Shown piece after piece: positions 9,001 through 28,019 of a stretch of 64,000 nt of DNA. Numbering within the stretch: position 1 is the stretch's first letter; the number at the start of each line of letters is the position of its first letter. The DNA is from an uncultured Chlamydiaceae bacterium. Lineage in GTDB: Bacteria; Chlamydiota; Chlamydiia; Chlamydiales; JAAKFR01. The position numbers are program-made. The DNA lies in the NCBI GenBank assembly GCA_942490925.1, contig CALNYX010000017.1:1026191-1090190 (forward strand), read 5' to 3'.

Positions 9001-12000
9001 AATGTATCATTTTTAATAAAAGTCATGCAGTGAATAGCAACTTCTAATGGCACTGCATTTTTACTTAGATTTAATAAATACCATATCGTTTTGCAAATAT
9101 CATCGGTTTGTATCATTTCTTCTGGTTTAAATCTCCTCTTTGCTGTCATTTCGGTAGCGGTTATATGAGGACATAAATTGGTAACTTTTACATTATAATA
9201 GGCCATTTCCTTAGCCAAAGCTTCAGAAAATCCAGATAATCCAAATTTGGATGCAGCATATATACCAGCAAAAGAAGCAGCAGTTTTTCCTCCCATAGAG
9301 GACATATTAATTATATAACCAGATTTTTGTTTTTTCATTTGTTCCGCAATGTATTTTGCGACATAAATGGCTCCATTTAGATTTATTTTTAAGAGTTCAT
9401 CTATTTCATTGTCAGACAATGTTATGGTGCCTTGTTTTAAAATTCCTGCATTGTTAAATAACAGATCTATATGTCCATATTTCGATATAATATTATTTAT
9501 GCAAGATTGGACTTCCATAGAAGTTGAAACATCTACAGAATAATATATAGCGGGATTTTTAGTTTTTTCAATTTGAGCTTTAACAGCTTTTAATTTTTCT
9601 TCGTTTCTGGCTAGCAAAATTACAAAATAACCATTTTTTGCTAAAAATATAGCTACAGATTTACCAATACCACTGCTAGCTCCAGTAACAAGAGCAATTT
9701 TTTTCTTCACTTTAAGTCCTTGCAAGTCATTTTTTTTTACTGATTTTTTGGTATCTAACTAAAAAAAATTTAATCAAGATTCATCCAAAAGGTACCCAAA
9801 AAGCTTCTCCAAATTATAAAAGGGGAGCCAAAGTTTTTTTTCGGGATGCAGATTTGGTCAATTGCAACGAGGGCAGTACGAGCAGTACGGCCGAGGAGCA
9901 ACTGGCCAAAGATGCTCTCGAAACGGAGGAGGTGGGATTCGCCCTTTCAGGGCGGGGTTACAAGTCTCGCTGTCGCTCGCTTGTTTCAACCCTTCGAATC
10001 CCTCACGGGAAAGCTCAACCGCTTCCCCTTCTCCTCCAAATTGTAAAGGGGAGCTTTAGCTCCCCTTTTACAATTTGGAGGAGGTGGGATTCGAACCCAC
10101 GGTACGTTTTAACGCACACACGCTTTCCAAGCGTGCTCCTTCGGCCGCTCGGACACTCCTCCAAAAGAGGAGAGCATCATAACCTCCATCCGAATTACTT
10201 GAAAGAATTCCTTCGAAAAGGTATCATTTCTTCTACTAATGCACAGATTTTTTTTAATTCTCTTACTTCTATCAGCTTCGCTCTACGCCCAACCGCGTGT
10301 AGCCGTTAGCATCGCACCTCAAAAATATCTTGTTGAGCGCATTGCTGAAGACCGTCTACTTGTCGATGTCATTGTCCCAGACGGAGCTAGCCCTCATTCA
10401 TACGAGCCAACCCCTAAACAAACAGTGACTCTTCAAAAAAGTTCTGTCTGGTTCCGTATTGGTGAAGGATTTGAACAGCGGCTTGTCGGGGTTCTGGCGC
10501 CAAAAATGATCATTGTTGACCAGCGCGAAGGTATCGATCTGCTCCCCGCTTCAGGTTGCTGCTGCAGCAATAAGGACGCACATGACTCTCACATCTGGCT
10601 AAGTCCAACACTTCTCAAGAGCCAAGCAAAGCAGATAACTACAGTGCTTTGCCAACGCTTCCCTGAATCTGCCGCTTTTTTCCAGAATAATTTTAAGTCC
10701 TTGTCACTAGAGCTCGATCAACTCAATGACGAGATCTCTGAAATGCTTGAGGGACGAAAAGGAACAACAATGCTTGTTTCGCACCCAGCTTTTGGCTATT
10801 TTTGTCGAGAATATGACCTCAAGCAGATTTCGATAGAAAATGAAGGGAAAGAGCCTACAACCAAGCAACTGCTCGCTCTAATTGAAGAGGCTCGGGATGC
10901 TGAAATTGGCGCCGTCTTCTTGCAACGCCAATACAATGTGAAAGGTGGTGAGCGTGTGGCTCATGCACTCAATGCTAAAGTTGTCATGGTTGACCCTTAC
11001 CGTGAAGATGTCATTGCTAACCTCAAGTTTCTAGCAGAAGTCTTATGATTAAGGCAGAAAACCTTTTTTTCTCCTACGATGACAGCACACAAATCCTAAA
11101 AGATGTCTCTTTCACGATCAAAGAGGGTGAATTTGTTTCCCTATTCGGCCCTAATGGCGGTGGCAAGACGACGCTTCTCCATTTAATTATGGGCTTTCAT
11201 GAGCCTTTGCGTGGCAAATTGCTGCTTAACGGTGTGTCACCAAAAAAAGCGCGTCCACTCATCGGCTGGGTTCCACAAAGTTTTCATCCTGATCCCCTTT
11301 TTCCAATCTCTGTCCTCGAAGTCGTCTTGATTGGAAACCTAAAGAAGTGCACAAAACAAGAGGCCCTTAAAGCTCTCGACCGCGTAGGCATGAAAAAATT
11401 TGCGCCCTTTCCTTTCACCTCTCTTTCAGGTGGTCAAGCTCAGCGTGTTTTAATGGCCCGCGCCCTTGCTGGTGAGCCTAAAATTCTTCTTCTAGATGAG
11501 CCCACTGCTAATGTCGACCCTGAGGCTCAAAAAGAGATCTACGCCATTTTGAAAAGCTTGAAAGGGAAAGTGACCATTGTCATGGTTACGCATGATCTGC
11601 CCAATTCGCTTGAACTTTCAGATCGTTTCTTGTGCGTCCAGCACGAGGTTACTGAGATGGCACCAAATCAGATCTGCCACCACTATTCTCATGGACTCTA
11701 TCACACGGAGCTCTCATGAACTTTTTAGATGCCCTGCTCTCCTCTTCGATACTCCAAATGTCTTTCCTAGCTATTATCGGCACCTCATTTGCCAGTGGTA
11801 TTTTGGGCTCTTATGTCGTTGTCAAACGGATTCTATCCATCAGCGGAAGCATTGCCCACTCTGTTCTCAGTGGCCTTGGTTGCGCTCTTTGGTTGCAACG
11901 CCGCTTTGAACTTGAATGGCTCCTTCCCATCTATGGAGCTCTCGTTGCAGCTATCCTTGCAGCCCTGATCATTGGTTTTGTCCATCTCTATTACCGCCAG

Positions 12001-27000: not shown

Positions 27001-28019
27001 TAGTTATCAACTGTTTGCCGCTTAACATGCGATTCTCTGGCAATTTCTGTACTCGCCCACAATCCTCCATGAGAAAATGTTGCAACTTCCATAAAGCGTA
27101 CAAAATCCCCAACCTGTCTAACAAGACCTTCTGCTTGAACTTCTTCTTTCAGATACACAGAAATATAAGCTCGTAATTTTTCTTGCGATTCCATCGATTG
27201 CCAAATTAACGGCACTAAGCCAAATTGAAGAGCTCTTTTCAAAGAAAATTTCTCTTTTAATTCACTTCCAATAAAAGGATGCATGTGACGAAGTAGAGCT
27301 CTACCACCTAATAGATCTCCCACAGAACGTCGCAGCTTTCTAACACTACTCCCTGTAAGAATAAATTGGATGCCACTTCCTTTCTCAATTAAGACATGAA
27401 TCACAGGAATCAAATCGGGAGCACGTTGAACTTCATCAATAATGCAAACATCACCAGGATTAAGAGAGGAAATGTAGTCGATCAATCTCTCCGGCTTTGC
27501 AAGAAATTTTCTCTCTGTTTCTCGATCTAATAAGTCAATTCTAAGAGCTTTTGGGAAACTTTTAGCAAGCCATGTTGACTTGCCTGTTCCCCTAGGACCA
27601 AATAGAAAAAAACTCTCTTTTTTGGGAGGAATGATTAATCGGGGTATATAATGCATATTGCCATCCGTTTTGGCGATTTTAATTGCAATACGCCAAACCT
27701 GTTGGCATATTGCAACAAAAATACCCCCTCATCCAGAAACAGAAAAGAGTAAGTGCATTAGGTTTTGAGGGAATTGGGCGTGGTGAGTTTGGGTGATCTT
27801 AGGCGAGGGCAGTGCCCAGAAAGAATTTCAGTCTAAAAAGAGTGACCGTTTGCGGATTCTCGACGAGGGCAGTACGTGGAACATTAGGTTTTGAGGGAAT
27901 TGGGCGTGGTGAGTTTGGGTGATCGTAACAAGGGCAGTGCGAGGAGCACGGCCGAGGAGGGATCAGCCAAAATAACCCGCCCAATTCCCTCAAAATGGCC
28001 AGAGCCAGAATCGAACTGG

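Follow-up and report, generated by a model that had tools for sequence, protein, structure and literature searches.

A conserved hairpin element behind tRNA genes of environmental Chlamydiales, possibly an end module of tRNA-integrating islands

The DNA analysed here (the window) is a stretch of 64,000 nt from an uncultured Chlamydiaceae bacterium, and its minus strand carries a tRNA-Ser(GGA) and a tRNA-Phe(GAA) gene (Table 1). A preliminary description of this DNA had reported a 27/31 match between 9868-9898 and 27929-27959, behind both tRNAs. Direct comparison within the 64-kb window gave the same sequences and the same identity, where chance expects none. A degenerate 28-nt pattern of the tip occurs at exactly 2 sites in the 64 kb (0 expected from shuffles), and the covariance model R1, run over the whole window with filters off, found only the two copies (73 and 72 bits; next match 18 bits). 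Both motifs are tips of long hairpins whose favoured strand is +, antisense to the tRNAs. The outer stems had been called long and unrelated; they are long, but they are diverged homologues, with common blocks such as GCAGTTTGG...CCAAAATGC. The reported A-T to G-C swap was confirmed: GTAC...GTAC and GTGC...GCAC differ in both bases of a single pair, a genuine double change, and this pair also varies across 13 members of the family (G-C in 11, A-U in 2), the pair next to it being U-A once. The half-copies noticed at 27804-27815 and 27864-27876 are both real, since CGAGGGCAGTRC with at most one mismatch is found at 4 sites of the window (9868, 27804, 27864, 27929) against 0.15 expected. The position behind both tRNAs can be given more precisely: copy 2 abuts the tRNA-Phe gene, and copy 1 abuts a copy of the tRNA-Ser end, 152 nt from the real tRNA-Ser.

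Table 1 Features of the window and hairpin copies in other Chlamydiales assemblies. Positions are those of the window.
Feature	Position	Strand	Evidence or context
Island of ~6 kb, Na/Ala symporter gene to tRNA-Ser; tRNA-proximal end bears hairpin copy 1	3866-9839	.	L050 gene order
Additional truncated copy of left arm of the 10026-10088 hairpin	9804-9833	.	inverted repeats I1, I2
Hairpin copy 1, short class, 83 nt; tip 9868-9898	9840-9922	+	fold -42.1 kcal/mol, z -5.8
R1 match, hairpin copy 1	9847-9918	+	72.1 bits
17-nt exact copy of tRNA-Ser(GGA) 3' end, T-loop to acceptor end	9925-9941	-	direct repeat D2
'X', 113-nt tRNA-like sequence	9925-10037	-	fold -57.8 kcal/mol, z -5.1
Simple hairpin, right arm entering tRNA-Ser acceptor end	10026-10088	.	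inverted repeats I1, I2
tRNA-Ser(GGA)	10075-10163	-	ARAGORN; Rfam tRNA 55.4 bits
Displaced tRNA-Phe 3' half, anticodon loop to 3' end	24426-24471	-	repeat of 27996-28045
Body of tRNA-Phe island	24472-27755	.	Pfam scan
SulP permease gene, tRNA-Phe island	24640-26412		Pfam scan
AAA_14/DUF4143 ATPase gene, tRNA-Phe island	26502-27656		Pfam scan
Older hairpin copy, left arm and left tip half, cut at loop	27756-27815	+	direct repeat D1
Remnant of displaced tRNA-Phe 3' half, anticodon-arm part	27817-27833	+	repeat D4
Second truncated copy, left arm and left tip half CGAGGGCAGTAC, cut at loop	27840-27875	+	repeat D3
Hairpin copy 2, long class, 108 nt; tip 27929-27959	27888-27995	+	fold -65.6 kcal/mol, z -8.6
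R1 match, hairpin copy 2	27908-27979	+	73.4 bits
tRNA-Phe(GAA)	27996-28068	-	ARAGORN; Rfam 73.2 bits
Hairpin, L001			behind tRNA-Ser-GCT
Hairpin, L010			behind tRNA-Leu-CAA
Hairpin, L013, L018, L040, L047, L045			behind tRNA-Phe
Hairpin, L016			behind tRNA-Leu-TAG
Hairpin, L036			behind tRNA-Tyr, last tRNA of Thr-Tyr pair
Hairpin, L037			behind 'X'
Hairpin, L027			behind tRNA-Phe fragment

At the tRNA-Phe locus, copy 2 stops at the discriminator base of the tRNA (27996), and its repeated unit begins at 27882 (CATTAGG). The left arm of the older copy at 27756-27815 is 98% identical to 27882-27927, and this copy and the second truncated one stop exactly at the loop (27815 and 27875). Between the hairpin copies of this array lies the tRNA-Phe remnant (14/17 match, which 8 of 2000 shuffles reach), and a three-sequence alignment shows that it shares an ...AGTC boundary with the displaced tRNA half at 24471. 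A 3.5-kb island has its far end at the displaced half, which no hairpin adjoins; the hairpin is next to the intact tRNA-Phe instead. A Pfam scan of the island body found the two genes listed in Table 1 and no integrase gene. The displaced tRNA halves, the islands and the tandem truncated older copies were absent from the preliminary description and are the context to which we give most weight.

At the tRNA-Ser locus, copy 1 ends 2 nt from the copy of the tRNA-Ser 3' end (9925-9941 equals 10077-10093, 100% identical). The tRNA-like sequence 'X' has acceptor-like ends GGAGGAG/CTCCTCC, a D-arm-like hairpin and a split T-loop-like TTCGAA, and its homologue in L037 shows compensatory changes in two helices. 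Neither ARAGORN nor Rfam calls it; tRNA, tRNA-Sec and tmRNA were rejected as identities, relaxed ARAGORN having given spurious calls only. 'X' is a leftover of past integration events or else an RNA gene not yet recognised. By gene order, the relative L050 lacks the ~6 kb between the symporter gene and tRNA-Ser, and the genes that flank this insert are orthologous there (symporter 65%, ZnuA 63% identical). Both window copies lie at the tRNA-proximal ends of inserted islands: as in known tRNA islands, repeats of tRNA 3' parts (Phe, Ser) bound the DNA and the 6-kb insert is absent from a relative, but the integrase gene at one end is missing.

Searches of other Chlamydiales assemblies gave 15 further copies, full or partial, so that ~17 copies were sampled in all. 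Although the motif and model searches were blind to tRNAs, every further copy is behind a tRNA(-like) 3' end in a single fixed orientation. All copies are intergenic, the element measures ~85-110 nt, and a reference genome has 1-3 copies of the strict motif. The tRNA genes that bear the element have no encoded CCA, and their discriminator base is where the hairpin starts; the stem base varies from 2 nt short of the tRNA end to 17 nt inside the tRNA, with the palindrome reaching into the tRNA 3' end in L036, L001 and L010. The orthologous tRNA-Phe sites of L048, L049 and L053 and the tRNA-Ser-ZnuA site of L050 have no hairpin. Older copies in the window, L047 and L027 keep the tRNA-distal arm and have lost the proximal part; the L047 copies are contiguous with no tRNA fragments between them, and L027 has contiguous tandem hairpins beside a displaced tRNA-Phe fragment. 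Arm identity gave no clear grouping of the copies by tRNA type or by genome. Copies within a genome are no more alike than copies from different genomes, which gives no indication of recent bursts. In phage and plasmid collections (blastn, distant mode) nothing matched the hairpin. Matches in IMG/VR were GC-rich chance matches only, and actinobacterial and other GC-rich matches in genome and metagenome scans (57-75% G+C) were rejected, having neither hairpin nor tRNA context.

The 35-nt tip, TTCTCGACGAGGGCAGTGC-N5-GCACGGCCGAGGAGAGAA, keeps at least 90% conservation in several genomes and behind six kinds of tRNA(-like) gene. It is asymmetric and non-palindromic, with an 8-bp stem, a 5-nt loop, unpaired flanking tags, a purine-rich 6 x 5 internal loop and an invariant A.G mismatch. 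The arms have only 31-75% identity, yet in the 13 copies 89.5% of core cells are paired (77.5% when shuffled), and double changes affect 14 of 23 core pairs against 6.8 in shuffles, none of 500 shuffles reaching this. In this family structure is conserved over sequence, as had been proposed. Quasi-palindrome or template-switch correction in DNA can mimic compensatory change without selection. However, a tip kept at this level while the arms drift needs purifying selection on its sequence. The hairpin is very stable on either strand, and several measures favour the strand antisense to the tRNA. On this strand G.T wobbles number 23 against 6 A.C, and arms-only fold energy is better in 12/13 copies; at one position the tRNA-sense strand has a C.A mismatch where the commonest antisense pair is G.U (7/13). 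The G.T excess opposes the local GC skew. We rejected replication-linked mutation bias as its cause because the GC skew of the window's + strand is negative, which predicts the opposite bias.

No enzyme that could move such an element was seen in its surroundings. Integrases, transposases, relaxases and reverse transcriptases were found neither within 1-7 kb of any copy nor among the ~39 window proteins scanned, and ~46 neighbouring and window proteins include no RAYT/TnpA(Y1). Islands and neighbours gave no Phage_integrase or recombinase match, a permissive rescan with PHROGs of neighbours without Pfam matches gave no recombinase, and Pfam scans of window and neighbours revealed no intI gene or cassette array. 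The loci examined showed neither an intact element nor an excised (attP) form. The AAA_14/DUF4143 ATPase was rejected as a hallmark: its paralogues near the two window loci share only 31% identity, and the neighbour in L010 is unrelated. At gathering threshold, Rfam 15 matches only the two tRNAs of the window, and permissive scans of both window loci and L013 gave nothing above noise on the hairpins. The preliminary description could not name the family, and no Rfam family matches it; of the two outcomes that it gave as counting against it, a lack of copies and covariation beyond these and a match to a known Rfam or repeat family, neither was observed. A literature search for a described chlamydial tRNA-linked palindrome returned nothing relevant.

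Our leading, though tentative, reading, to which we give somewhat less than an even chance, is that a clade of environmental Chlamydiales has tRNA-integrating islands of which the hairpin is a conserved end module. Islands would enter the 3' part of tRNA genes, and an incoming island would bring a replacement tRNA 3' part with the hairpin, its tRNA-proximal module, directly after it. Because the island would supply both, each insertion would set a fresh hairpin against the tRNA, while older hairpins and tRNA fragments would move outward and decay. The arms would need only to pair, and the tip would be recognised by its sequence, presumably by a protein. Selection would act on the fold of the antisense strand (relative to the tRNA), either as RNA or as single-stranded DNA. 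At the junction, the hairpin may be part of the recombination region (attP to attL), or it may insulate or attenuate island-tRNA transcripts. The two loci resemble tRNA-integrating genomic islands with P4-type tyrosine integrases in the direct repeats of tRNA 3' parts that flank the inserts (45 nt Phe, 17 nt Ser), in accessory-gene cargo and in signs of tandem accretion, but no integrase gene is left here, and the attL/attR sites of such islands are not described as having a long, conserved hairpin against the core. This island-module reading would need extra deletions in L047, where the copies are contiguous without tRNA fragments, and a chromosomal hairpin that predates the island fits L027 equally well, its hairpins being beside the displaced fragment. 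We also counted against it the lack of integrase, transposase, relaxase and reverse transcriptase, the small number of copies and the possible origin of compensatory change by template switch.

One close likeness is to integrative and conjugative elements (ICEs). In ICEKp1, ICE-borne stem-loops directly after the tRNA attenuate read-through, and in ICEKp1, ICEEc1 and ICEclc the post-tRNA stem-loops belong to the int 5'-UTR (PMC13023037). In both cases the structure follows the tRNA 3' end at once, on the side of the island, and the native tRNA flank is displaced by the element; the ICE stem-loops are element-supplied and thought to control junction-crossing transcripts. However, these ICEs have several small stem-loops followed by the integrase gene, whereas the chlamydial element is one 85-110-nt rod with a conserved tip and no int gene downstream. 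ICEKp1 works in tRNA-sense RNA and the chlamydial antisense strand is the better hairpin, which we also counted against the island-module reading.

An alternative that we consider unlikely, but a serious contender, is a non-autonomous REP/BIME- or MITE-like palindrome, inserted beside tRNA-like 3' ends by an enzyme that is encoded elsewhere and reads the hairpin of one strand; islands at the same tRNAs would then be a coincidence. REPs are small stem-loops tagged with GTAG or CGTC, and the chlamydial tip is REP-like in size, in its 8-bp stem and 5-nt loop and in its unpaired tags (PMC3733652). REP/BIME elements are likewise short imperfect palindromes whose dimers form larger ones, and their hairpins are strand-specific and tolerate mismatches, as the chlamydial hairpin tolerates G.T in the manner of HUH/Y1-recognised hairpins. 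Variable presence among orthologous tRNAs, the fragment-free tandem copies of L047 and L027 and the targeting of 'X' agree with this alternative as well. On the other hand, REPs are dispersed in tens to thousands of copies, and here the 1-3 strict-motif copies of a reference genome include none away from tRNAs; no RAYT/Y1 or other transposase was among the proteins scanned; and copies within a genome are no closer to each other, as recent bursts would make them. One strand of the tip has GACG-AG-[8-bp stem] and the other [stem]-CT-CGTC, a mirror image of how REPs are arranged, so that tag and orientation misfit, there is no unpaired 5' GTAG/CGTC tag, and the stem starts G-C, not A-T as the A/T-first rule of REPs has it. 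MITEs have terminal inverted repeats and a target-site duplication. The chlamydial element as a whole is one palindrome, and no flanking direct repeat is visible; the AAATTT base is itself palindromic, which makes a target-site duplication unreadable. Older copies are truncated, not just displaced, and a tRNA-half remnant is inside the array. The proposed kinship with dispersed repeats such as REPs or Rickettsia palindromic elements (RPEs) was not supported, given the low copy number, the tRNA(-like) ends, the one orientation and the lack of a RAYT gene among the ~46 proteins scanned. RPEs and other MITE-like palindromes of intracellular bacteria are also hairpin-forming, ~100 nt long, from an obligate intracellular lineage and sporadic at orthologous sites, but RPEs are found at many sites as in-frame insertions in protein and RNA genes, whereas the chlamydial element is strictly intergenic, abuts tRNAs, has few copies and is conserved at its centre, not its ends. 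Integron attC and CTX phage attP(+), both folded single-strand recombination sites, share with it an imperfect palindrome of similar length that folds on one particular strand, a structure better conserved than the sequence, and bulges or internal loops that are conserved. However, attC is conserved at the stem base (R''/R' boxes), not the tip, and lies in cassette arrays beside intI; its core boxes (RYYYAAC / GTTRRRY) are absent here, where stem bases are GAAATTTC/GAAATTT or T-run/A-run. CTX phage targets dif, and the chlamydial hairpins have no such context.

It is improbable, in our estimate, that the hairpin is a host tRNA 3'-trailer element, co-transcribed with the tRNA and cut after the discriminator base, which would act as terminator, RNase III/exonuclease processing signal or source of a small RNA that might pair with ribosome-binding sites through its CU-rich internal loop. 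The start at the discriminator base of genes without encoded CCA, the place after the last tRNA of the Thr-Tyr pair in L036, the stability on either strand and the sequence constraint on the tip would suit a trailer. However, it is behind few tRNAs per genome and absent at the orthologous tRNAs of relatives, and the tRNA-sense strand is the worse hairpin in 12/13 copies, with C.A in place of the commonest G.U. In the window it is the island side that has the hairpins, and not the native flank that was displaced. Terminator and promoter scans flag neither of them, and no conserved promoter was seen upstream on either strand. In the short class a U-run precedes the stem and an A-run follows it, whichever strand is read, which is opposite to the order in a terminator; in the long class AAAUUU(U) occurs only at the stem base. 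The G+C-rich stem with immediate U-tract of intrinsic terminators is not present. We regard as very improbable a functionless by-product of palindrome dynamics, in which a short inverted repeat near a tRNA seeds fold-back or template-switch synthesis, long palindromes are built and re-perfected, and hairpin cleavage leaves half-copies. Half-copies that stop exactly at the loop, palindromes that enter the tRNA 3' end and the mimicry of compensatory change by quasi-palindrome correction speak for it; an asymmetric tip that stays nearly the same behind six kinds of tRNA(-like) gene as the arms diverge speaks against it, and strand asymmetry is unexpected from symmetric DNA processes. Quite improbable, too, is a bolder proposal: that the hairpin is the working part of undescribed tRNA-end-targeting mobile DNA without canonical integrase, whose antisense strand-specific fold, continuing into the tRNA complement, is recognised by a protein encoded elsewhere and directs repeated insertion or replacement at the discriminator base together with adjacent island DNA.

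Bacterial tRNA genes are main entry points for foreign DNA, yet in environmental Chlamydiae, to our knowledge, recognisable integrases and intact islands are few. The hairpin element matches no described RNA or repeat family. If, as in the island-module reading, it marks the tRNA side of island junctions, it would be a sequence handle for finding islands in Chlamydiales MAGs. As a junction module it would also point to a protein partner for the invariant tip, and would offer a testable case of island-tRNA insulation or recombination. If it is instead a repeat with tRNA ends as its target, it would represent a new targeting specificity for small palindromic elements.

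The 31-nt motifs at 9868-9898 and 27929-27959 are correct in sequence as the preliminary description had quoted them and agree at 27/31 positions, and both sit at the tip of long hairpins, whose folding energies and z-scores are given in the table. A 28-nt degenerate motif occurs in the window only at these two sites, where shuffles expect 0, and the left half CGAGGGCAGTRC has four sites vs 0.15 expected, which bears out the half-copies reported at 27804 and 27864. A covariance model of the hairpin core (R1), built from 13 copies and run unfiltered across the entire window, matched only the two copies (73 and 72 bits), the next best scoring 18 bits. 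Both hairpins had been placed behind the two tRNA genes of the window. This holds for copy 2, whose end meets the discriminator base of tRNA-Phe, whereas copy 1 adjoins only a copy of the tRNA-Ser 3' end, a 17-nt exact match 2 nt away from the hairpin and 152 nt from the real tRNA-Ser.

Hairpin copies, array units and neighbouring features (window positions unless a locus, L, from another Chlamydiales assembly or metagenome contig is named)
Feature	Location	Detail
Hairpin copy 1	9840-9922	-42.1 kcal/mol, z -5.8
Hairpin copy 2	27888-27995	-65.6 kcal/mol, z -8.6
tRNA-Ser(GGA)	10075-10163	minus strand
tRNA-Phe	27996-28068	minus strand
tRNA-Ser 3'-end copy	9925-9941	17 nt
tRNA-like 'X'	9925-10037 (-)	113 nt; homologue L037 about 425-535
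Displaced tRNA-Phe half	24426-24471	decayed; anticodon loop to 3' end
tRNA-Phe insert	24426-27995	3.5 kb
Array unit 1, left arm and half tip	27756-27815	behind tRNA-Phe
Array unit 2, tRNA-Phe anticodon-arm remnant	27817-27833	17 nt, 14/17 identical
Array unit 3, other sequence		12 nt, between remnant and second half-copy
Array unit 4, second half-copy	27840-27875	
Array unit 5, full copy		left arm and 7 flanking nt 98% identical to unit 1
AAA_14/DUF4143 ATPase genes	5070-6248 (+); 26502-27656 (-)	one per tRNA-linked island
RPE65/carotenoid-oxygenase family gene	18220-19719 (-)	E 5e-118
Sigma-70-like promoter	28069-28130 (-)	TTGCAA-N17-TATTCT
Hairpin behind tRNA-Phe	L013, L018, L040, L047, L045	
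Hairpin behind tRNA-Leu-CAA	L010	
Hairpin behind tRNA-Leu-TAG	L016	
Hairpin behind tRNA-Ser-GCT	L001	
Hairpin behind tRNA-Tyr	L036	last gene of Thr-Tyr pair
Hairpin behind 'X'	L037	
Hairpin behind tRNA-Phe 3' fragment	L027	43 nt
Second palindrome	L037 760-832 (-)	R1, 26 bits
ORF remnant	L037 212-343 (-)	43 aa
Tandem repeats	L048 ~9270-9600	~110 nt each
IS3-type transposase HTH fragment	L053 11634-11801 (-)	

The hairpin comes in a long class (~110 nt, stem base GAAATTTC...GAAATTT) and a short class (about 85-95 nt, stem base of a T-run and an A-run). The central 35-40 nt read TTCTCGACGAGGGCAGTGC-N5-GCACGGCCGAGGAGAGAA with at least 90% identity among copies, and free variation is confined to the 5-nt loop. 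The tip holds a nearly invariant A.G mismatch and a purine internal loop of 6 x 5 nt (GACGAG facing GAGGA), where tandem G.A pairs could form on either side of a C-G pair. Despite arm identities of 31-75%, 295 of 364 aligned arm positions are Watson-Crick and 23 are G.T pairs. In the core alignment (73 columns), 89.5% of cells are paired vs 77.5% when shuffled and 38-47% with partners slid, and 14 of 23 core pairs changed on both sides vs 6.8 in shuffles (0/500 reach 14). The A-T to G-C swap pointed out earlier is one of these 14, and the claim that structure is kept over sequence stands.

The strand antisense to the tRNA (window plus) forms the better hairpin in 12/12 copies folded whole, and still does in 12/13 after the tip is swapped for a neutral loop. 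Its arm mismatches are 23 G.T vs 6 A.C (binomial p = 0.002, with fewer independent counts than this assumes, since 7 of the 23 G.T are one conserved position); at L036 all 5/5 are G.T. The GC skew of the window plus strand is negative, so replication-linked deamination predicts a bias opposite to that observed. Taken together, strand energies, G.T excess and skew suggest that selection acts on the fold of the antisense strand, whether as RNA or as single-stranded DNA.

Among GTDB species, each represented by one genome, a search with the pattern AGGGCAG-NN-C-N5-G-NN-CGGCCGAGGAG gave 6 loci from 4 Chlamydiales MAGs; the remaining matches, in unrelated GC-rich DNA (57-75% G+C) with neither hairpin nor tRNA context, were discarded. 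A looser metagenome scan added 3 loci, and L047 and L045 came from loci retrieved via Tsp orthologues (the nearest Tsp homologue of the window genome, a 1.80-Mb contig, is 66% identical). Every copy lies directly behind a tRNA or tRNA-like sequence, always in the same orientation, with the stem base anywhere from 2 nt outside the tRNA end to 17 nt inside it. On the other loci R1 gave 12 strong matches (59-92 bits), all known copies or tandem neighbours. One further match, in L037, is weak. L037 also has another palindrome, unlike the hairpin and rich in GCGAGCGA (26 bits with R1), whose GCGAGCG motif also occurs within 'X'. No Rfam family matched the hairpin at any threshold used, and nothing resembling it was found in the phage and plasmid collections searched.

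The terminator scan of the window flagged neither hairpin, and in the short class a U-run precedes the stem and an A-run follows it, whichever strand is read. The element is absent from the tRNA-Phe beside tsp in the relatives L048, L049 and L053 and from the tRNA-Ser-ZnuA site of L050. The hairpin is neither a terminator nor a general tRNA feature. Downstream of the hairpin-less tRNA-Phe, L048 has GC-rich tandem repeats (CGGCCCCGCAATGCCTGGGCCTGGTTAACACC...), and in L053 an IS3-type fragment directly behind this gene is a further sign of tRNA-Phe as an insertion hot spot.

The 3.5-kb insert at tRNA-Phe is bounded by the displaced tRNA half and encodes a SulP/STAS permease and an AAA_14/DUF4143 ATPase; a domain scan of its proteins found no integrase. 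The displaced, originally chromosomal fragment has no adjoining hairpin, and the intact tRNA-Phe has hairpins on its island side. The array remnant shares the AGTC end boundary of the displaced half, and its identity was reached by 8/2000 shuffles. Arrays also occur at L047 (a full copy, a right-arm-truncated copy, a left-arm fragment and a copy cut at the tip), and L027 has two copies next to its displaced tRNA-Phe fragment. In older copies it is always the tRNA-distal arm that survives and the proximal part that is missing; contact with the tRNA is in every case made by the newest intact copy. At tRNA-Ser, the gene order of L050 is symporter, 128-aa gene, tRNA-Ser, ZnuA; the window, with an orthologous symporter gene (65% identical), has ~6 kb more between symporter and tRNA-Ser, and copy 1 is placed at the tRNA end of this insert. 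Genes near other copies are varied and accessory-type (beta-lactamase family, methyltransferase, F-box/TPR, unknown-function).

The ATPase genes of the two islands, only 31% identical in sequence, belong to a widespread family and probably occur in both by chance. The sigma-70-like promoter lies just upstream of tRNA-Phe, and ATTGCAA(T/C) recurs at ~27683 and ~27710, ahead of the tRNA-Phe-island ATPase gene. The carotenoid-oxygenase family is uncommon in chlamydial genomes.

The ends of the tRNA-like 'X' resemble a tRNA-Ser acceptor; it has an extended D-arm-like hairpin and a T-loop-like TTCGAA divided by ~52 nt, and lacks the anticodon arm. It is conserved in L037, where two helices carry compensatory changes, and an additional 5' half-copy lies there on the far side of the hairpin. 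'X' could consist of debris left by integration events, or it could be an RNA gene that has escaped recognition. About 80 nt from this X-hairpin unit, the L037 ORF remnant has a C-terminal helix-turn-helix as in recombinases and transposases (LGMSYREITEILGIDKKTVGKGL).

We favour, at somewhat less than even odds, the reading that islands integrating into tRNA 3' parts have the hairpin as a conserved module at their tRNA-proximal end. Each integration would bring a replacement tRNA 3' part with the hairpin directly after it, and earlier units would be pushed away from the tRNA and then eroded. The main weakness of this island-module reading is that no mobility enzyme turned up: integrase, transposase, RAYT and reverse transcriptase were found neither near any copy nor among the window proteins scanned, and the loci examined showed no element either intact or excised. 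That no RAYT or transposase was found there also counts against a REP/MITE-like repeat that an enzyme encoded at another site would direct to tRNA ends, which we regard as unlikely though worth considering. A host tRNA trailer RNA is less probable again, since simple trailer models leave the antisense-strand preference unexplained and orthologous tRNA sites have no hairpin. Template-switch correction in DNA palindromes can imitate compensatory change; it cannot explain the conservation of an asymmetric, non-palindromic tip, and palindrome dynamics without function are thus very improbable.

The hairpin may belong to the recombination region, or it may, by analogy, be an insulator or attenuator of junction-crossing transcripts, as are the ICE-borne stem-loops after tRNA-Asn in ICEKp1 (PMC13023037). 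These share the post-tRNA position; unlike the hairpin, they act in the tRNA sense and lie upstream of an integrase gene (PMC13023037). REP tips (PMC3733652) and RPE-type elements share the hairpin size class, and integron attC and CTX attP share one-strand folding, but each has a defining feature that the element lacks. The earlier REP-like or Rickettsia-palindromic-type assignment is not supported, and the strict motif has only 1-3 copies per reference genome. We regard the element as a low-copy, strand-specific, tip-conserved hairpin linked to tRNA-island junctions of uncultured Chlamydiales.
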